Shown piece by piece: positions 1,081-64,000 of a stretch of 64,000 nucleotides of DNA. The translations under genes and the position numbers were made by a program. The number at the start of each line of letters is the position of its first letter. Within the stretch, counting starts at the first letter, position 1. This DNA is from a virus (taxonomy: Duplodnaviria; Caudoviricetes), in IMG/VR virus record IMGVR_UViG_3300010282_000004, positions 83,595-147,594 of that record, one strand, 5' to 3'. The notes below the pieces were generated by a model. It was not told the DNA's origin. It saw only the letters and a program-made list of their open reading frames with translations, and searched no databases.

Positions 1081-1135
1081 AATGAAAAGAGGTTTAAATA
1101 TTGGATACGAAAAAATAAATATGAAAAACAAAACT

Positions 1136-1268
1136 AAGTGGTCGGGCAGAGCCTTTCACTCTTGCAGCACCCTTGCCAAGTTCAGGTACTTATTACTAAG
1201 TCGATTACCTTGCTGATCGAGGGAATATTATTGTCTTGAATGTGTTTATCTTTCACCACCGACCACTT
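1136..1268 (-). ncRNA. putative small structured RNA (~133 nt)
   Basis: perfect 10-bp closing stem AAGTGGTCGG/CCGACCACTT; GC-richer non-coding DNA between a promoter-like motif and a terminator. Confidence 0.5.
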
Positions 1269-1272
1269 TAAT

Positions 1273-1284
1273 ATATTATTCTCT
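1273..1284 (-). promoter_or_regulatory. AGAGAATAATAT motif, putative phage-sigma promoter element
   Basis: identical 12-mer also at 19631-19642 and 22681-22692, always intergenic and upstream of minus-strand units. Confidence 0.5.
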
Positions 1285-1287
1285 GTT

Positions 1288-1668
1288 TTAATATCTTTCA
1301 TCATCTAAAATTTTAATAATACCACTTTCTTCCATATCGAATAGTCTATCTCTTAATTCTTCATTGCAATTATCAACTTCTTTTACAAATATAACATTGC
1401 CATTTTCAAATTCTTTTTTACATTCATTCATCAATTCAGTTTCATCATCATAAAAACATCCGTCCATTTCATCAAATGATCTAAATAGTTCTCCTCTGCT
1501 ATCCTCTGGATAATAATCATCACTCTTTAACATAGACATAATTGTTTCACCAAAATCTTTAAGGAATGGATATTTATCAACTGTATCCTTATCAATCGGA
1601 TCTTCATTAAAACTTATAATAAAACTACTACTACTAGAATTTGTTACAAAATCTGTTCTAACCTTCAT
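1288..1668 (-). CDS. TNSSSSS-motif protein, putative rSAM substrate/partner
   Basis: N-terminus MKVRTDFVTNSSSSSFII. Confidence 0.8.
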   Translation of the reverse strand: MKVRTDFVTNSSSSSFIISFNEDPIDKDTVDKYPFLKDFGETIMSMLKSDDYYPEDSRGELFRSFDEMDGCFYDDETELMNECKKEFENGNVIFVKEVDNCNEELRDRLFDMEESGIIKILDDERY

Positions 1669-4385: not shown

Positions 4386-4779
4386 ATACTATCTCCCTAT
4401 CACTCTTGCACCCATTTAATGCCCACGTTAAATTATCAATAATCTTAAGAATATCGCTTTCTTCGTATACGACAAAATAACTATTTTCATCATAATCATG
4501 ATCACATGTGTCGGTTGTTGTTTCACTGATTGAATTTTCTAATAAAATATAACCATCTTGTCTGTCCATTTTAACTTCAACATAATCTAACATGTGTAAA
4601 ACACAACAAAAATGACCACTATTTTCAGAAAAATAACCATCTTCAGTATGACCACATAAAATATTTAATCCATCAATGTCCATATCACCATTATATTTAC
4701 CAAAGTTATCATCTACAATTTGACTAAACACAGTTCCATTTGGCATATGTGCTAATTCTTTTATGTTTACTATTTTCAT
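4366..4779 (-). CDS. hypothetical protein
   Basis: 137-aa ORF with GAGGAG RBS. Confidence 0.75.
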   Translation of the reverse strand: MKIVNIKELAHMPNGTVFSQIVDDNFGKYNGDMDIDGLNILCGHTEDGYFSENSGHFCCVLHMLDYVEVKMDRQDGYILLENSISETTTDTCDHDYDENSYFVVYEESDILKIIDNLTWALNGCKSDREIVYDDRRI

Positions 4780-5309
4780 AAATTGTTCTCCTCAATATAC
4801 TTTTCTAATATTGTAAACTTTTCTTCCAATTTATTAAATCTTTCTCTTCTCTCTTTAATACGTTCTTCTTTCTCACGTCTAATTTCATCTTCAACTTTTT
4901 GAACATGCTCCATGTTTTCGTACTTATATTGAGCAATCTTATCTGCAAAAATTTTCTTTGCATGTTCTTCATCTTCTGCTAATAAACTAATAGAATATTC
5001 GCCATTATGATTAAAATGCATTTCGTTATTTTCATACCATTCAAATGGGTTACTCCAAGGTTTTTCAAGAGATTCTCTAGTAATATAAATTTTTCCATCA
5101 AATTTCCTACGACAAAAGAACCCAATTTTACCACGATACGTTTTCTTCATGTCTCTTAAATCAATCTTAACCTCATCAGTATCAAACTCTGTTATTGATG
5201 CATCTGGACATACATAGTCAACATACTGCTTTGCAATCTCATAGTTGTCTGTAACATGAGAAACATATCTATCAGAATATTCTCCAACTTCAATCACATA
5301 TACTTTCAT
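4776..5309 (-). CDS. hypothetical protein, paralog of 5290..5727
   Basis: shares MKxY...PDASIxEFD and A.D.E.A.K.F motifs. Confidence 0.75.
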   Translation of the reverse strand: MKVYVIEVGEYSDRYVSHVTDNYEIAKQYVDYVCPDASITEFDTDEVKIDLRDMKKTYRGKIGFFCRRKFDGKIYITRESLEKPWSNPFEWYENNEMHFNHNGEYSISLLAEDEEHAKKIFADKIAQYKYENMEHVQKVEDEIRREKEERIKERRERFNKLEEKFTILEKYIEENNL

Positions 5310-5727
5310 CGCTCATTCTCCTTTTTTCTCTCAATTGTTTCCTAAACTCTGCAATCATTTTTTCTTCTTCAATATAATCGTTCATCATCTTCCTGAATTT
5401 CTTCTCAGCTTCTTCTCTATCGTTTGCAAAAATATGACCAATAGCAGTTCCACCATTAACACTAAACATATCGTTATCTATATCATCATCAGAAATACCT
5501 TCATTTTTAACAACAATAGGAGAATGAGGTTCTCTAGTACATTTATATAACTTTTTACCATTATATTTTTCTATAACTGGATCAACCTTTTCACATACCT
5601 TGTCTGAATCAAATTCTTTTATACTTGCATCAGGTCTAATATACTCAATAAATTTTTTTGCATATTCATAATCGTTAGTAATATAACGGACATCACCATA
5701 ATAATTCGTTATTGCATATAATTTCAT
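5290..5727 (-). CDS. hypothetical protein, paralog of 4776..5309
   Basis: same shared motifs; AAGGAG RBS. Confidence 0.75.
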   Translation of the reverse strand: MKLYAITNYYGDVRYITNDYEYAKKFIEYIRPDASIKEFDSDKVCEKVDPVIEKYNGKKLYKCTREPHSPIVVKNEGISDDDIDNDMFSVNGGTAIGHIFANDREEAEKKFRKMMNDYIEEEKMIAEFRKQLREKRRMSDESICD

Positions 5728-5990
5728 TCTTCATACTCCTTAAATAAAATTTTAACTGGCCAACAACAACACATATTACCTTTCTTAATAACCTCTTCGT
5801 AATCAGTACCCGGAAATGGTATATTATAAACCATAACAAAATCTGGACTGAACCAATCTGATTGGGTATGCAGCTTTCTAACCTTATTATTAATCACACG
5901 ACAAATACTGTTGTTGCAAATATCCTCATCGGCTATTAAATTTATTATCTCTTGCTTATAACAATCTCTTCGTGATTTCCAAACACTCAT
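5724..5990 (-). CDS. hypothetical protein
   Basis: 88-aa ORF with RBS. Confidence 0.65.
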   Translation of the reverse strand: MSVWKSRRDCYKQEIINLIADEDICNNSICRVINNKVRKLHTQSDWFSPDFVMVYNIPFPGTDYEEVIKKGNMCCCWPVKILFKEYEE

Positions 5991-6004
5991 TCTTTTTCTC
6001 TCCT

Positions 6005-6397: not shown

Positions 6398-8683
6398 TTA
6401 TTTATCATATTTAATAGATAACCATGTGTTTCTACTATTATGACTTGTTCTTATACATTGTAAGAACGCCTGTGGCTCTGCCAATAACAAACATCTTTTC
6501 TTTGCTCTTGTAATTAAAGTATAAAGCATACAATTATCAAGCAATGCATAATGTGTATTATCAATGATACCAATTACTGTTTTATATCCACTACCTTGGC
6601 ATTTGTGACATGTAAGTGCATAAGCTAAATCAAGAGCAGACGTTTCATTAATGGTATATTCAACAAACTTTGAGCCACCATTAGTATCATTAAACTTTAC
6701 GACACAATATTTGCTATTATGGTTCTTGTCCTTATTATGAATCTCCACAATGTATCCGATCTCGCCATTGAACACGTTCTTTTGATAGTCATTTACAGTC
6801 TGCATTACCCTGGCACCAAGCTTAAATGTATTCTCGTAGTTACCAATCTCTTCTTTAACATTCCCAAGTAACTGTTCTTGTAAGAACTTATTGATTTCAA
6901 ATGTAGAATTAAGGCAATTTGACTTTCTTGGAACAATGATTACCACATTTTCAAGTCCATCAGTCTCAACCGTTTTTAAGAACGTTTTCGTTGCAATATC
7001 AAATAGACTCTGACGATTGGTACGAAACATGTAGAACATATCTTGCAGTTCACCACGAACAATCTTCGGTTCAAACGTTCCCCCAAGAGGATTTTTATTC
7101 TCTCTTATTACATTGGCATCCATGAGAATCCCGGATTTCTTTGCTTGTCTCATAGGCTCTGTAAGTTTGCTAACTACCTTATTGCCAAGTAAGTCTATAA
7201 TATCAGAAAATACATTGCCATATCCAATAGGCGGTAACTGTTTATGGTCACCTGATATAATGATTCTAGTCTTGTCATCAATGGCCTCTAACCAATTAAG
7301 GAATAACCTAGCATTAACCATAGAACCTTCGTCCAAGAAAGCAACATCTACAATCATATGATTATCTTTATTGAATGTAAATGTATTTAACCCCATACAT
7401 CCTAATGTTCTATGGATTGTCATAGCAGGATATCCTGTAGCTTCAACAATTCTTTTGGCAGCCATTGCAGACAATGCACATGCAGATACAGAATGCTTGT
7501 TCTCACAATAAGCTTTAATAATACCTCTCATTAACGAACTCTTACCAACACCAGCCTTACCAGTAATAACACTAACTGGTCTATTAAGACATGTATTGAT
7601 TACATTTTTTTGTTCTTCTGTATATTCAAAGCCTTGTTCTTCTTCAGCTTTCTTAATGCCCATATCATTCTTTTTAGGATCGAGTACAAAACTACAATCT
7701 AATTTAGACTTATTATACAAAATGTCAACAATCTTACATTCAACATCATAGTAATATTTCAATCCAATTTTATCATCCTTTATATATAAGAAGTCGTTGT
7801 TCTCTAAAAGCCACTCAAACTTATCACTACATTCAGTAACTGTGTTATCAATAGCTTCTTTAAGAATATCTTTTGATACCCATGTATGTCCGTCACTCTC
7901 ACCAATCTCCTTTAAATAATATGTTACAAATGCAACAAGCCTTTCAGGAGACTGAAGAAGTTGTGGTTTAAGTTTAAGTGCCAATCCATCAATCTTACGA
8001 AAACCTAATCCAGAAATACGTGTCATAACATATGGGTTTTCTTCAAGTTGTTGTTTAAGCAATGCCGGGTTAGGCTCATCAGTAAGCAACTTCCTAATCA
8101 TATTATATGTAACACCTAATGGTTTTAACATAATAATGATATCAGAAATAAGGTAGTTATTTAAAATTGTTTCCTTAATACGTTCCCATGTCGCCTTGCC
8201 AACACCTTTAACTTTATTGTAGTCAATATCCTTAACCTCTCCAGAAGTCACATCATTTACAATATTAGGATATGCTTTAGTAAGGTTTACTGCCAAACTC
8301 TCACTTATTAAAGATTTGAGAAACATAATCTGATCCTCTTCTGTCTGTGGTGCAAGAGCATAAATAGCAATAGGAACGTATTGGTCACCATAAGTCTTAT
8401 CATACTTATAAGTGGCTTTGATAGTATACTTCCCACCTACTACTAACTCTTGCATCTTCCCGGACAGAGATGAAAACTTCTTTTCTACATCTGACTTATT
8501 ATCAAATGGTGTAGCAGTTTCTTTTGTATAATGAGGAATGTCATCTTCAGTGGAGAACAAATATGCTCCCCACGAAGAATCTGGATTATAGTATTTCTGA
8601 TATGTGATTGTGGCATCAAACTTTATTACTTCATCATTAGTTGTCAACTCTTCGCACCTCTTTCTTTCATTTGGGCAACCCAT
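6398..8683 (-). CDS. recD2: RecD2-like SF1B helicase
   Basis: Walker A GKAGVGKS, DEGSMV, GDHKQLPPIG, LAYALTCHKCQGS, LYTLITRAK; true start may be TTG at 8647. Confidence 0.92.
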   Translation of the reverse strand: MGCPNERKRCEELTTNDEVIKFDATITYQKYYNPDSSWGAYLFSTEDDIPHYTKETATPFDNKSDVEKKFSSLSGKMQELVVGGKYTIKATYKYDKTYGDQYVPIAIYALAPQTEEDQIMFLKSLISESLAVNLTKAYPNIVNDVTSGEVKDIDYNKVKGVGKATWERIKETILNNYLISDIIIMLKPLGVTYNMIRKLLTDEPNPALLKQQLEENPYVMTRISGLGFRKIDGLALKLKPQLLQSPERLVAFVTYYLKEIGESDGHTWVSKDILKEAIDNTVTECSDKFEWLLENNDFLYIKDDKIGLKYYYDVECKIVDILYNKSKLDCSFVLDPKKNDMGIKKAEEEQGFEYTEEQKNVINTCLNRPVSVITGKAGVGKSSLMRGIIKAYCENKHSVSACALSAMAAKRIVEATGYPAMTIHRTLGCMGLNTFTFNKDNHMIVDVAFLDEGSMVNARLFLNWLEAIDDKTRIIISGDHKQLPPIGYGNVFSDIIDLLGNKVVSKLTEPMRQAKKSGILMDANVIRENKNPLGGTFEPKIVRGELQDMFYMFRTNRQSLFDIATKTFLKTVETDGLENVVIIVPRKSNCLNSTFEINKFLQEQLLGNVKEEIGNYENTFKLGARVMQTVNDYQKNVFNGEIGYIVEIHNKDKNHNSKYCVVKFNDTNGGSKFVEYTINETSALDLAYALTCHKCQGSGYKTVIGIIDNTHYALLDNCMLYTLITRAKKRCLLLAEPQAFLQCIRTSHNSRNTWLSIKYDK

Positions 8684-35106: not shown

Positions 35107-36117
35107 TTAATCCTTGATTCCATGCATCTGTTTTGCAAGCATTTCAGTTGCATTCATTCTATCATTGTTATCTACCATCGCATACTTTCTTGTTGTTGCC
35201 GGAGATTTGTGTCCAAGTGTTTCTGCTACAATATAAATATCTCTTGTCGCCCGGTACATATTTGTAGCACATGTACTTCTAAGTTTGTGAGGTGTAATGT
35301 GTTTATTGATTCCATTTGTATATTTATTTACAATATATTGAATGGATCTTACATCCATTTTTTCTTTTCTATTTGATATAAATAAATATCCACAATCATT
35401 ACTACCTTTTAAAAGTTCCTTTCTATGCCTAATCCATGTATGTAATAGTTCTATTGTCTCATCATCAAGATATAATTTCTTTTCTCTTGCCTTATCAATT
35501 ACATATATACATTTCTTATCGAAGTCTATATCTTCCATTGATATTTGACTTAATGCAGTAACACGAACGCCTGTCATAATTGGAATTTGGAATAACAATA
35601 AATCTCTATACATCCATGGTTTTTGTCTTGCCCTTGCCCTACTGCTCCCTGTTCCAGATAAAATATTATTTTTTACAATACTATATTCCTCTGGCTCAAG
35701 AAAAGTAATTTCATTATCTCCAACATTTGGCCTTTTAATTCTCTTGCCATCAAATGGATTGTCAGTTATAATATTATTATATTTAAGAAATGTTGTAAAT
35801 GCATTTATGTAGCAATATAGATTTGCTTTTGCATCATCACGTAACTCTTTATTGTCATCAAAATATTGTATCTCAGACATAAACTGTTGAATTACTCTTG
35901 GACTAATTTTGTTTAGTTTTTCATTGTTAACACTATTAATATTTCCATTTGAATACCAATTAAGAAATCTTATTGCACTATCAATATAAATCTTTTTTGT
36001 CTTATATGTTTTTTCATTTAAGTAATAATAGTAATCCATAAGAAATTCCGGCATGCCACTTATTTTTTCTCTTATTTTTTTCTCTTCCCTAATCTTATCT
36101 TCAATACGTCCTCTCAT
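35107..36117 (-). CDS. tyrosine recombinase (XerC/D-like)
   Basis: TGVRV (R), PHKLRST (HxxR), LGH, TRKY (Y). Confidence 0.92.
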   Translation of the reverse strand: MRGRIEDKIREEKKIREKISGMPEFLMDYYYYLNEKTYKTKKIYIDSAIRFLNWYSNGNINSVNNEKLNKISPRVIQQFMSEIQYFDDNKELRDDAKANLYCYINAFTTFLKYNNIITDNPFDGKRIKRPNVGDNEITFLEPEEYSIVKNNILSGTGSSRARARQKPWMYRDLLLFQIPIMTGVRVTALSQISMEDIDFDKKCIYVIDKAREKKLYLDDETIELLHTWIRHRKELLKGSNDCGYLFISNRKEKMDVRSIQYIVNKYTNGINKHITPHKLRSTCATNMYRATRDIYIVAETLGHKSPATTRKYAMVDNNDRMNATEMLAKQMHGIKD

Positions 36118-61009: not shown

Positions 61010-61858
61010 TTAAGCGTTCATCTGACGTTCTTCCTCATTGTCAAAGAAGATGACGTAGGCTTTCTCATGACTGATGTAACCATCAGGCTCTTCGATTGCT
61101 ACATCTCTGAGTTCATAGTCACAACGACCATTCTCAGATTCTTCAATAATAGATTTTGCCACATCAACTTTATATGCAAACTGTACAGTCTTGCCGATGT
61201 ATAATTTCTCAGCAAGATCCTTGGAGAATACTGCCGTATAGTCAGACATCTCCTCATGGCAATATCTCTCCTCGAATACATAGCCAAGGCTGAGTTTGTC
61301 ACTAATATCCTTAATACAGTTGATGACTTCCTCGGAATTGGAGTAAATTGCTCCTCGTCCATAATTCTGAACGTCACAGATAGTGTCTATAACTTCATCC
61401 CACAAATCCCGGCACTCCTCAAGATTACGAGAGAATTCGTACTCATAACGGTACGGATTGTCACTGTTGCCATGCTCAAACTCAACCTCAAGAGTTGCAC
61501 TGTCGCCATGCCCTATGACATAAAATGTAGTGTCCTTGAGATTCGGAATCTCAATCATGATTGTTCCAATAGCATCACCGAGATGACCGTCCTTAGATCT
61601 AGTATGAAAGTAATAGATTGGCTGGTCTTTCATAATATCTAAACGGCAGATAAAGTCGTTTGAATCTGAAGGTAAGAACCACTGAAGTCGGCTACCCCAC
61701 TCATATTCAGTGATACTTGGATGAGCATTAGGCTCAACAATCTGATCAAAGACAAATAAGAAATTGCCACCGCTGAGTCTTGATGCCTTGGTTACGAATT
61801 CAACAAAGTTTGTGGATTCGGACTTGTTAACAGTTGCGATTTTTGATTCTTTTTTTAT
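61010..61858 (-). CDS. hypothetical protein, probably starting at a non-canonical ATA
   Basis: frame stays open 75 codons above the ATG at 61633, up to an ATA preceded by AGGAG. Confidence 0.65.
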   Translation of the reverse strand: MKKESKIATVNKSESTNFVEFVTKASRLSGGNFLFVFDQIVEPNAHPSITEYEWGSRLQWFLPSDSNDFICRLDIMKDQPIYYFHTRSKDGHLGDAIGTIMIEIPNLKDTTFYVIGHGDSATLEVEFEHGNSDNPYRYEYEFSRNLEECRDLWDEVIDTICDVQNYGRGAIYSNSEEVINCIKDISDKLSLGYVFEERYCHEEMSDYTAVFSKDLAEKLYIGKTVQFAYKVDVAKSIIEESENGRCDYELRDVAIEEPDGYISHEKAYVIFFDNEEERQMNA

Positions 61859-61899
61859 AGAATTCTCCTATTCTCCACCGTTAGCCGTGGTCGCTGAAA

Positions 61900-62166
61900 T
61901 TAAAATTTAATTTTTTTAACTGATACATATTCATTTCTACTAGCGTAATCCTTATTAGAGTAGTGAGCGATAATCTCCTCCGGTGAAAACTTAAGACCGT
62001 TGTCAGTCCATGTTCTACGACTTGATTCATAGATTTTACCATTGCATGAGACAACAGTGTTAGCACTGTACTCCCATGAATGGTTCACATAATCAAAATT
62101 GAAAGTGATTAATATCACTCTCTTAAATCCATTCATTGGGTTGAAGAATGTTATTTTATACTTCAT
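61900..62166 (-). CDS. hypothetical protein
   Basis: AAGGAGG RBS. Confidence 0.7.
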   Translation of the reverse strand: MKYKITFFNPMNGFKRVILITFNFDYVNHSWEYSANTVVSCNGKIYESSRRTWTDNGLKFSPEEIIAHYSNKDYASRNEYVSVKKIKF

Positions 62167-62204
62167 ATTATTCCTCCTTGTAATATATAGGTGTTAACAG
62201 TTAC

Positions 62205-63358
62205 ACAAAGTATTCTGTCGTAGCATAGTCACTACCTTTGTGACCTATCCAACAGATACTTCGAAAGGGTGTGTTGGGAGTCGAACCCAAGAACATTGGT
62301 TCTTTATCCAGCCAATGTATCCGCAAAGCTCCAAATGACAAATGAGCCATTCTTCACAATCAACACCCATCTTTCGAGTAGCCATCACTAATGGTGGTAT
62401 CCCACGACTACTCTAGCCAACCGTCTGTATGTTCTACTATGTATGTAGTAGTCTTGCTAGTAAGCAAGTTTCAAGAGATACACACTACCTCTTGTGGCAT
62501 GGGGTCAACAATCTAGCGGATGGCTAATTATCCATACCAAACTGTGGCACTACTCACAGTCAGTTCTTAGGAGCTTTTCACAAGCAATCCCTGTCTGCGA
62601 CTTGGTCGTTGCTTGCTCTAACTGGGCTTTTACCACTAAGTAACATGTTGTCGATTCACATCGGAACTGTTACTATCATTGTGCTACTGCTCACACCCAG
62701 ACCTTGTACCCTTCGTCTCTTCCTCCACGGAACGGCTAACCGATTATCAGGCTCTACGGTTATCATGGTGACGTTGTCGTAACTGCGGTTATCCCAGAGA
62801 AGTTTTGTTGGTAGAGTATGAATACCAACACTTGCTCTGTCGTCCCACATAGAAGTGTCTGTCACCCACTTCGTTACGTCCTCGACCATTGGGGAACCCA
62901 TATGTAATTGTCAACCATTACTAGATAGTCTTACACAGAGTTGACTAGACTCTGATGCTACTTTCATGGCGAATACCTTCAGTCAAGGTACTCTAGGAAC
63001 GTTGATACTACTGTTATTCATATCAACGTTTGTTGGGTAGTTTGGTATTTGACCCAACTGATACACATCTAGTCTGTGACTAGGAAAGCATCCCCTCAAA
63101 AACTGACTACCGTAAGATATATACCCGGAAACCTCTGTAGTCGGCTTTTGAGATGACGCTTTGATATATGAAATTTTTATAAATCATAGAGTATATATAA
63201 GAGCGTAAGATGGATAACTCTATGAAATTTATGGTGATTGGTTGTAGGGTAGATAGTGTGGAGAGCCTGTGTAGATTACACATCCACTATCTACGACCGA
63301 TATGTGGCTCTCACCCTACTCGGTCTGTGAAGTACAAAACTTGAAAAGTCGACTTCAC
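62205..63358 (-). ncRNA. putative large structured non-coding RNA / leader (~1.15 kb)
   Basis: GC-richer, no credible CDS, more than a dozen consecutive inverted repeats, embedded tRNA-like T-arm; strand inferred from context. Confidence 0.6.
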
Positions 63359-63367
63359 CTTTGGGCA

Positions 63368-63404
63368 TAAAAAAAAGCCGTTCACACGTCTGTGAACGGC
63401 TTTT
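63368..63404 (-). terminator. strong intrinsic terminator
   Basis: AAAAGCCGTTCACA/TGTGAACGGCTTTT followed by a T tract and ATGCCC. Confidence 0.8.
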
Positions 63405-63430
63405 CAATCAATATTCAGTTGTATCGGCTA

Positions 63431-63694
63431 TTACTTCTTGAAGCCAGCCTTGATGTCTTCAACGAACATCTTGCCATACTCCATTGTTCTTTCGCCAGCC
63501 ATAATCTTATAGATGACAGGACGTACGGCCTTCAAAGGTCTTCCATTCTGACACAGGGCATCAAGCTCCTTAGCAATAGAGAGATACTTCTCTCTATCGA
63601 AGGTGTCCTTCTTAGGAGTTTCAGCAGGAATCTCAATTCCTAACTGCTTTGCCAATGCCACCAAAATGATTTTTTCTTCCTTAGTCATACTCAT
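63431..63694 (-). CDS. small basic protein, first gene of the early region
   Basis: MSMTKEEK after GGAGG. Confidence 0.7.
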   Translation of the reverse strand: MSMTKEEKIILVALAKQLGIEIPAETPKKDTFDREKYLSIAKELDALCQNGRPLKAVRPVIYKIMAGERTMEYGKMFVEDIKAGFKK

Positions 63695-63764
63695 TACCTC
63701 CAAAAGTATAATATTTTTTTTATTTTTTTACTTCAATAAATCGTCATCTATTGAAGTTGAGTCC

Positions 63765-63792
63765 ATCATAACACTATCTTAAAAGTTGTCCA
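63765..63792 (-). promoter_or_regulatory. sigmaA-type promoter of the early region
   Basis: TGGACA-N16-TATGAT with extended -10 TG. Confidence 0.55.
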
Positions 63793-64000
63793 TTTTTCAC
63801 AAAATTTACATTTTGCGAAATTTTAAGTGGGTGGGGGTAGACAAAACTAGCGGTTTGACCGCTTTTTTCCTGCGTCCCCTGGGCAGATTCACCCACACAC
63901 CACGAGAAAAATCTACCCCAACTCAAGCCAAACTAAAATGTCGCAAAATATGTTTTTAAATCATCACACTCATCACAAACATCACAACACCCAACCCAAC

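Follow-up and report, generated by a model that had tools for sequence, protein, structure and literature searches.

The last 64 kb of a 147.6-kb phage record in IMG/VR (IMGVR_UViG_3300010282_000004; these 64,000 nucleotides are called the window below, and positions without a contig name refer to them) hold at 62205-63358 a stretch without genes, which we read, with moderate confidence, as the locus of a heavily structured non-coding RNA (ncRNA) of about 1 kb that is encoded on the minus strand, belongs to an uncatalogued family, is cut from a longer transcript and acts in trans. Inspection of the letters alone (the sequence-only reading) had proposed for this place a large phage RNA made at the start of the early region, and the comparison with relatives bears out a conserved, structured RNA locus on the strand of the genes and at the head of an early operon.

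Conservation, covariation and strand of the RNA

The near relatives are Logan assembly contigs, reached via the protein encoded upstream of the stretch, and each has the same non-coding stretch. All four retain the RNA at 87-99% identity: L005 (stretch 811-2124, upstream protein 89% identical), L006 (631-1823, 62%), L007 (a partial stretch, 88%) and L008 (6292-7471, 37%). Sequence differences cluster in helices, and pairing is retained. In an alignment of three sequences 26 of 335 pairs are compensatory; an alignment of four contains 28 such pairs, compared with 4.3 (maximum 7) in column-shuffled alignments, and the lack of covariation that the sequence-only reading had named as counting against it is thus not what is found. 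The consensus energy of the four sequences is -338, against -120 +/- 10 after column shuffling (z -22). Three hairpins at 62494-62434 are nearly fully rewritten in L005 with their pairing kept (5, 3 and 4 compensatory pairs), and the core helices with covariation include 63030-62998, 62872-62852, 62539-62495, 62494-62472, 62468-62453, 62451-62434 and 62413-62376. Read along the minus strand, the stretch divides as follows:

63195-63358, minus strand: variable 5' leader with hairpins 63357-63327, 63325-63295 and 63294-63249 and an AT-rich hairpin, in two alternative versions among the relatives
62380-63190, minus strand: conserved core of about 25 hairpins, with covariation and with lineage-specific insertions at hairpin tips
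62263-62378, minus strand: tRNA-like domain, acceptor stem G62369-U62363 with C62274-C62268, T-stem 62291-62287 with 62279-62275, T-loop UUCGACU at 62286-62280
62205-62262, minus strand: compound hairpin without a U-tract at the 3' side, past which transcription would continue into the next gene

Across the core of the RNA (63190-62194) L006 and L008 share 95-99% identity with the window, and across the neighbouring DNA 70-80%; in L006 the core is 95-97% identical, yet the flanks reach 72-77% and the upstream protein only the 62% given above. Length changes are located at hairpin tips or in the leader: a 52-nucleotide (nt) insertion is found in the window and L008 only, one of 95 nt in L005 only, and L006 and L008 have a replacement of about 60 nt. 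The latter two relatives carry other sequence in the 5' leader, the block of high identity beginning at about 63190, and the linkers between hairpins are conserved as well as the hairpins themselves. Because the identity of the core exceeds that of the flanks in L006, and because insertions and deletions lie at hairpin tips, the RNA behaves as a module; since L005 and L006 have other genes downstream, this module ends before the ribosome-binding site AAGGAGGA of the next gene.

A protein-coding reading of 62205-63358 was rejected because the frames are not conserved in relatives. The longest open reading frame (ORF) has 81 amino acids (aa), and the frames of 81, 58, 49, 47 and 41 aa are interrupted by frameshifts or stops in the relatives; the sole frame kept is a 38-aa TTG frame, which lies in near-invariant sequence. 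The minimum free energy (MFE) of the minus strand is -369.6 kcal/mol, compared with -313.5 +/- 8.1 for 74 dinucleotide shuffles (z -6.9). The earlier description of a hairpin-dense region of about 1.15 kb with no credible gene thus agrees with our data, as does that of GC-richer DNA (G+C 0.44-0.48 at 62300-62900, against 0.34-0.36 in the flanks), and covariation-supported structure combined with the lack of a conserved ORF is what marks a large structured ncRNA. Of five stem-loops named individually in that description, 62998-63030, 63085-63162, 63327-63357 and the domain 62261-62377 recur in the four-sequence consensus. The fifth, 63249-63294, is present in the three-sequence consensus only, because two relatives have different sequence at this place in the variable leader.

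The RNA locus is on the minus strand, which is the sense strand in the following. When 62170-63360 is folded, the minus strand reaches -376.9 and the plus strand -337.4; the consensus fold likewise gives -338 for sense and -284 for antisense, and G-U cells number 142 on the sense strand versus 93 on the other. Hairpins with a T-loop (4 base pairs, UUCRANY, 4 base pairs) are found on the sense strand of every full-length homologue, the antisense matches to this pattern being two, both in L005. A pistol ribozyme in the more distant relative L010 is on the sense strand as well, and the flanking genes are all on the same strand as the RNA.

The tRNA-like domain and the elements at the RNA ends

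The RNA type of the window possesses one tRNA-like element only, near its 3' end. It has the form of an acceptor/T-arm minihelix, with a 7-base-pair acceptor stem on a 5-base-pair T-stem, a UUCRANY loop and one mismatch: six pairs of the acceptor stem are Watson-Crick pairs and the seventh is a U-C mismatch, and the first pair, in three sequences G-C, is reversed to C-G in L005. The discriminator is U62267, after which no CCA is encoded; two long, non-tRNA hairpins occupy the places of the D-arm and the anticodon arm, so that acceptor strand and T-arm are 70 nt apart, and there is also an extension stem, CGAAAG/CUUUCG. A canonical tRNA it is not, as there is no D arm, no anticodon arm and no match to RF00005 at E up to 10; ARAGORN called 0 tRNA or tmRNA genes in the window, and with relaxed settings only implausible ones with introns of 96-786 nt. 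MFE folding alone favours a different pairing of the T-arm.

A degenerate pattern of 22 nt, made from the T-arm and the 3' strand of the acceptor stem, matches in three phage tRNA arrays of IMG/VR, and one of these matches is within a called tRNA-Met(CAT). Because of this match, descent of the tRNA-like domain from a phage tRNA is most likely, as judged from sequence. The same 22 nt also match an element of L010. The two other matches in arrays (L021:1069-1090, minus strand, and L022:3667-3688, plus strand) lie in gaps without an ARAGORN call and are possibly further tRNA-like elements that are not tRNAs.

A tRNA-like module that ends a long RNA, and offers a candidate site for RNase P and RNase Z at which the neighbour is freed, recalls the tRNA punctuation that Ojala reportedly described in 1981 and the 3'-end formation of MALAT1 and mascRNA that Wilusz reportedly described in 2008, systems which are eukaryotic or mitochondrial. 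The module in the window differs in having an acceptor stem and T-arm with neither D nor anticodon arm, and its cleavage is a prediction.

Searching 1.84 billion representatives with a profile of the small protein encoded directly upstream of the RNA yielded ten distant relatives and, with these homologues of the small gene, five further RNA types: stretches of 1.1-1.65 kb without called genes, directly behind the gene. Such a stretch follows the small gene wherever the contig is long enough (L008, L009, L010, L013, L015 and L018), and measures 1145 nt in L010, 1153 nt in L009, 1651 nt in L013, at least 1254 nt in L015 and 1516 nt in L018; L014 and L017 give partial views. An 871-aa gene on the far side is common to L010 and L013, which makes these loci positional orthologues. 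Between L013 and L017, at 67% identity, 41 of 122 pairs are compensatory, an estimate that is generous because it is drawn from two sequences. A leader motif after the terminator, UUUUUUAUGCCC followed by GGUGAA, is common to the window and L017 (by eye). None of nine loci has a canonical tRNA, and apart from pistol no Rfam family was found in the positional orthologues searched (L009, L010, L013, L017 and L018). The contig L020 has 1.7 kb without called genes and with one T-loop hairpin (L020:326-2061), which lie upstream, not downstream, of the small-protein gene; the contig ends 176 nt past that gene.

The 5' edge of the stretch in L010 is formed exactly by a complete pistol ribozyme (RF02679; L010:6391-6457, plus strand; 73.2 bits at a gathering threshold of 34.5, E 3e-13), which starts 10 nt past the stop of the small gene. 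We expect its cut at G6452/U6453, by homology with the mapped G-U site of the class, and self-cleavage would give the large RNA a fresh 5' end. About 820 nt beyond the pistol follows a tRNA-like minihelix (T-arm 7270-7285), and about 880 nt downstream of the pistol a terminator-like hairpin and a hydrophobic 29-aa ORF (7348-7437) with a good ribosome-binding site. At the place of the pistol the window has a terminator and leader hairpins instead, and no pistol is found in the window even when 63180-63440 is searched alone. The properties of the class, and its association with phages, are described in PMC4604425.

T-loop hairpins number two each in L009 and L018 (967 and 913 nt apart), three in L013 and at least two in L017. 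A T-loop minihelix is found near the 5' edge in L009, L013, L017 and L018, and a tRNA-like element near the 3' edge in the window, L010, L009 and L018. The pistol, the T-loop minihelix and the terminator with leader, swapped at the same position in related phages, amount to a natural experiment, and to judge by their sequences the swapped 5' elements suggest functionally equivalent makers of RNA ends.

Several further observations concern these divergent RNA types. From about position 1231 of the L013 gap (L013 ~5585) onward, a terminator hairpin and then a small hydrophobic ORF follow the RNA body, as in L010, and the third T-loop hairpin of L013 lies past this ORF. Two uncalled ORFs with ribosome-binding sites (L018:4525-4692 and 4710-4868, plus strand; 55 and 52 aa) lie ahead of the first T-loop hairpin of L018; because of these ORFs, the RNA part of the stretch is only about 0.95 kb long. 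A small hairpin whose internal loop is asymmetric (by eye: outer stem, CUCU, an inner stem of 3-4 base pairs, a loop of 4-6 nt, AU, outer stem) comes after the pistol or T-loop element in four divergent RNA types, at L010:6477-6511, at about 960-1000 in L009 and in two copies each in L013 and L017. Both of its stems covary; it is neither in Rfam nor in the RNA type of the window.

Genome setting and the small protein

Nearly every gene from about 36.8 to 63.7 kb of the window is on the minus strand, and the gene-free stretch is sandwiched by two of them, one of 90 aa upstream (63703-63431) and one of 88 aa downstream (62166-61900). The record ends 0.6-1.8 kb away from the stretch, which is adjoined by a divergent control region. 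The contig L008 continues from window position 63826 directly into the start of the same record and thereby joins the end of the record to its beginning (via L008:5139-6026), which makes the small gene and the gene-free stretch, adjoined by a divergently transcribed block, the first units of a leftward early operon. Because L008 links the end (63826-64000) to the start, the 147.6-kb record is probably near-complete, circular or permuted. The order in this operon is promoter, gene of the small helical protein, RNA and then many small early genes, so that the RNA is its second unit, followed by 26 kb of early genes. The features that surround the RNA are:

63765-63792, minus strand: sigma-70-like early promoter upstream of the small gene (TGGACA, 16 nt, TG-TATGAT; 10 of 12 consensus positions matched, extended -10), putative, as a consensus match only
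63431-63703, minus strand: gene of the small helical protein (85-90 aa; family of 13 proteins), directly upstream of the RNA in all cases
63369-63404, minus strand: predicted intrinsic terminator, a hairpin with U8 that separates the small gene from the RNA
61900-62166, minus strand: first downstream early gene, 88 aa, ribosome-binding site AAGGAGGA

The terminator stem of L006 and L008 differs by two compensatory changes and thereby remains paired. Two ATTTTGCGAMAT boxes, inverted relative to each other, lie a short way upstream of the early promoter (63810-63821, plus strand, and 63938-63949, minus strand), the nearer about 20 nt from the -35 hexamer, and are a putative operator; the number of such boxes is not above chance, 3 matches being reached in 22 of 100 shuffles. 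L008 has an additional 1.2 kb or so without called genes (4756-6000) upstream of its small gene.

The small protein comprises 85-133 residues in its family of 13, with a variable N-terminal part and a conserved C-terminal part of about 55 residues that carries the motif FDRxKY...RPxxYxxMxG. It has no match in Pfam or PHROG. AlphaFold2 predicts a helical structure (pLDDT 80 overall, about 90 over the conserved part), for which Foldseek returned no match at E up to 0.001; VIA-align matched generic helical bundles at a Z of 5.8 at best, which is uninformative. Because the protein constantly adjoins very divergent RNAs, we infer that protein and RNA may form a functional pair.

The family belongs to a small group of temperate phages of about 150 kb and of Firmicutes type. 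The DnaE-type polymerase of the phage is closest to that of Clostridium phage Amboise of [Clostridium] innocuum (48% identity), a tyrosine integrase is encoded at 35107-36117, and the three tRNAs of the phage genome are all outside the RNA region of the window. A TnpB gene (OrfB_IS605 and Cas12f-like TNB domain) lies within the phage at 20369-21574 (minus strand), and the close relative L008 has a group I intron (1109-1356, minus strand; 56 bits, above the gathering score) adjoining a gene of the NUMOD4 homing-endonuclease type.

Searches for the RNA and its neighbours elsewhere gave little. Exact and degenerate patterns of the RNA were found in none of IMG/VR, the JGI metagenomes and the GTDB genomes; blastn against 50,697 phage records gave no match; the flanking proteins have no relatives in IMG/VR, and the profile of the small protein found nothing in IMG/VR and JGI. 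A 665-aa protein has one distant relative, on a contig without the RNA.

Competing explanations and meaning of the locus

According to the explanation that we favour, transcription of the RNA would start at the early promoter and pass the hairpin terminator, or would start at a promoter not recognised as such, and RNA 'punctuation' would free the RNA from the polycistronic transcript: on the 3' side by RNase P and RNase Z acting on the tRNA-like domain, and on the 5' side, in the relatives, by the pistol ribozyme or a T-loop minihelix. Early in infection the freed RNA would work in trans, as a stable scaffold or decoy and possibly in a particle with the co-inherited small protein. A single molecule is favoured because linkers are conserved like stems and because the 0.9-kb body has no internal punctuation.

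The same stretch could, on the other hand, be an island of several small stable RNAs into which a degenerated phage tRNA operon is chopped, an explanation that we regard as doubtful but worth serious thought. Species 1 and 2 of the T4 tRNA region (rnaC and rnaD) are such RNAs, stable, structured, of about 120-140 nt each, situated among real tRNAs, co-transcribed and processed with tRNA-type signals; the window shares with them a phage-encoded structured RNA with tRNA-type signals and differs in a length of about 1 kb and in having no real tRNA. For an island speak covariation that is all in local hairpins, the one to three T-loop elements per stretch among relatives, a T-arm/acceptor segment that is that of a phage tRNA-Met from tRNA arrays, arms exchanged like cassettes, and the small ORFs inside the stretch in L018 and L010. 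However, conservation of the linkers equals that of the hairpins, the single tRNA-like element of the window type leaves no obvious cutter of the 0.9-kb body, and no canonical tRNA remains in the nine loci.

The stretch is situated between terminator and operon, on the strand of the operon, and in the window no terminator separates the RNA from the 88-aa gene; this would also suit a cis-acting leader, that is, a long structured 5' untranslated region through which antitermination, stability or translation of the early genes downstream (26 kb) is controlled. We consider this unlikely: the leader and antitermination RNAs known so far are far shorter than 1 kb, in L010 and L013 the RNA is followed by a terminator-like hairpin ahead of the next ORF, pistol and tRNA-like elements imply that the RNA is severed from its neighbours, and the downstream genes are exchanged among relatives while the RNA stays.

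The sequence-only reading had further seen a repeated GUAG loop motif in the stretch, and had suggested a decoy, sponge or scaffold, with CsrB/RsmZ as a parallel; as a sponge of that kind, the RNA would titrate one RNA-binding protein with many GUAG loops. CTAC, the complement of GUAG, is indeed present at all six places named. In 6 of the 29 hairpins of the MFE fold at least 2 nt of a GUAG fall in the loop, compared with 0.72 +/- 0.91 (maximum 3) in 74 shuffles, none of which reaches 6; the word is never wholly within a loop and spans the 3' loop edge, GUA closing the loop and G opening the 3' strand of the stem. The proposed comparison with shuffled sequence therefore comes out positive for the loop edge and negative for the plain word, which is counted 12 times against 7.6 +/- 2.5 (P 0.065, not significant). 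The complement CUAC is counted 10 times against 5.05 (P 0.02), and because it is equally enriched, many GUAG copies are plain helix strands. Among relatives the six loops behave as follows:

62541-62560: GUAG retained in all relatives covering it
62955-62967, GAAAGUAG: GUAG retained in all relatives, the divergent L007 included
62228-62244: AUAG in L005 (in L007 too where covered)
62998-63030: AUAG in L005 and L007
62481-62496: GUAG lost, the loop rewritten while the stem covaries
62680-62695: GUAG lost, GUAA in L005 and L006

The word is enriched at the loop edges of the MFE fold and strictly kept in only two of six loops; nor is the enrichment family-wide, since among the positional orthologues it is seen in L009 (z 3.5) and L017 (z 2.3) but not in L013 (-0.2), L018 (-0.4) or L010 (-1.8), although AAGUAGU-like words recur in L010, L013 and L017. 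The window has in common with CsrB/RsmZ many hairpins, some with a common short word at the loop edge; it differs in that this word is not conserved across homologues and that, in contrast to short GGA hairpins, its stems are long and conserved. For a sponge one would expect loops that stay constant while stems vary; in the window RNA it is the hairpins that are conserved and not the loop word, and the suggestion is not supported as it was made. We know of no CsrA-like partner of the window RNA. The case for a GUAG sponge is weak, and we rate it as improbable, slightly more so than the leader; a weaker role for the word, in a structural module of RUAG or AGUA type (loop-E-like, for example), is conceivable from the sequences.

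An element acting as DNA (replication origin, packaging site, or a phage attachment site, attP, with the tRNA 3' fragment as integration core) is hardly credible: location 0.6-1.8 kb from the record end beside the divergent control region, and a tRNA 3'-end fragment of the kind typical of attP, would fit it, but compensatory changes including G-U pairs and the strand asymmetry argue for RNA, L008 passes straight through the record end, and attP itself was rejected with the integrase 27 kb away, the 23-mer in none of 185,579 species reference genomes, and the acceptor 5' strand also present and covarying.

Several points weigh against the favoured explanation of a trans-acting RNA cut from its transcript. 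A strong terminator separates the sole good promoter from the RNA, and no promoter-like site lies between. Close relatives number only four, and in L008 the block of 97-99% identity does not stop at the RNA but takes in downstream genes, so that recent mosaic exchange, not constraint on the RNA, accounts for part of the conservation. Each helix with covariation spans less than about 150 nt, so that a single global fold is a matter of modelling; long-range helices proposed by RNAalifold (63371-63363/62698-62690, and 583-590/1274-1281 and 805-812/1146-1153 of alignment A2) have no compensatory support, and one of its long-range helices, GGGUGUG/CACACCC, is contradicted by L005. An 11-nt GAAA receptor, read by eye from CCUAAG/UAUGG near 62570-62530, was dropped as UAUGG is not conserved. 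The small protein is without a recognisable RNA-binding fold in searches of the PDB. Apart from the T-arm/acceptor segment and the short 5' leader motif, the RNA bodies of L009, L010, L013, L017 and L018 cannot be aligned with that of the window, and their homology is inferred from position only. The family is also rare, with about ten loci that all come from raw-read assemblies, which limits statistics and reach.

The locus falls within a known kind, the large phage RNAs associated with tRNA-type elements, and its family is uncatalogued. GOLLD and ROOL, which the sequence-only reading had named for comparison in Rfam, are the closest parallels. GOLLD is a large (over 800 nt), ornate phage or prophage RNA with a conserved and a variable part, which is found near tRNA islands (downstream of a Met-tRNA in env-38) and sometimes has tRNAs embedded in it; ROOL, of unknown function, is a large phage or prophage RNA as well, and is likewise often near tRNA islands (PMC12286853). 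The window RNA resembles both in being a large RNA borne by a phage. It differs from GOLLD in that the variable part consists of the 5' leader and the hairpin tips and in that nothing points to multimer formation; it is about twice as long as ROOL (about 580 nt). A cmscan of 61800-64000 against Rfam, at the gathering threshold and at E up to 10, returned no family and only weak terminator look-alikes, neither GOLLD nor ROOL among them, so this is not a known Rfam family. Infernal found no GOLLD (RF02032) in the whole 147.6-kb record at E up to 10, nor is there any in L009, L010, L013, L017 and L018; a search of the whole record for ROOL (RF03087) was empty too, but its control genomes also gave no match, which makes this one search uninformative by itself.

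To our knowledge, very few phage or bacterial ncRNAs of more than 500 nt have a proven structure (OLE, GOLLD, ROOL, raiA and HEARO), and their functions are mostly open. The present locus adds an example of about 1 kb that is supported by covariation, has a fixed address as the first non-coding unit of an early operon, a constant protein neighbour and visible processing signals. We suggest, tentatively, that it is the first member of a new class of phage RNAs of about 1 kb, comparable to GOLLD and ROOL and unrelated to them in sequence, which interchangeable punctuation (pistol ribozyme, T-loop minihelix or tRNA-like domain) would release from the first early transcript and which would have the small protein as partner in a ribonucleoprotein or higher-order RNA assembly. 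If so, these RNAs could, for example, capture host factors that handle tRNA or associate with the ribosome as infection begins, and the pistol ribozyme would gain a concrete biological job. The exchange of end elements at one position bears in this way on a long-standing question, the purpose of self-cleaving ribozymes in phages.

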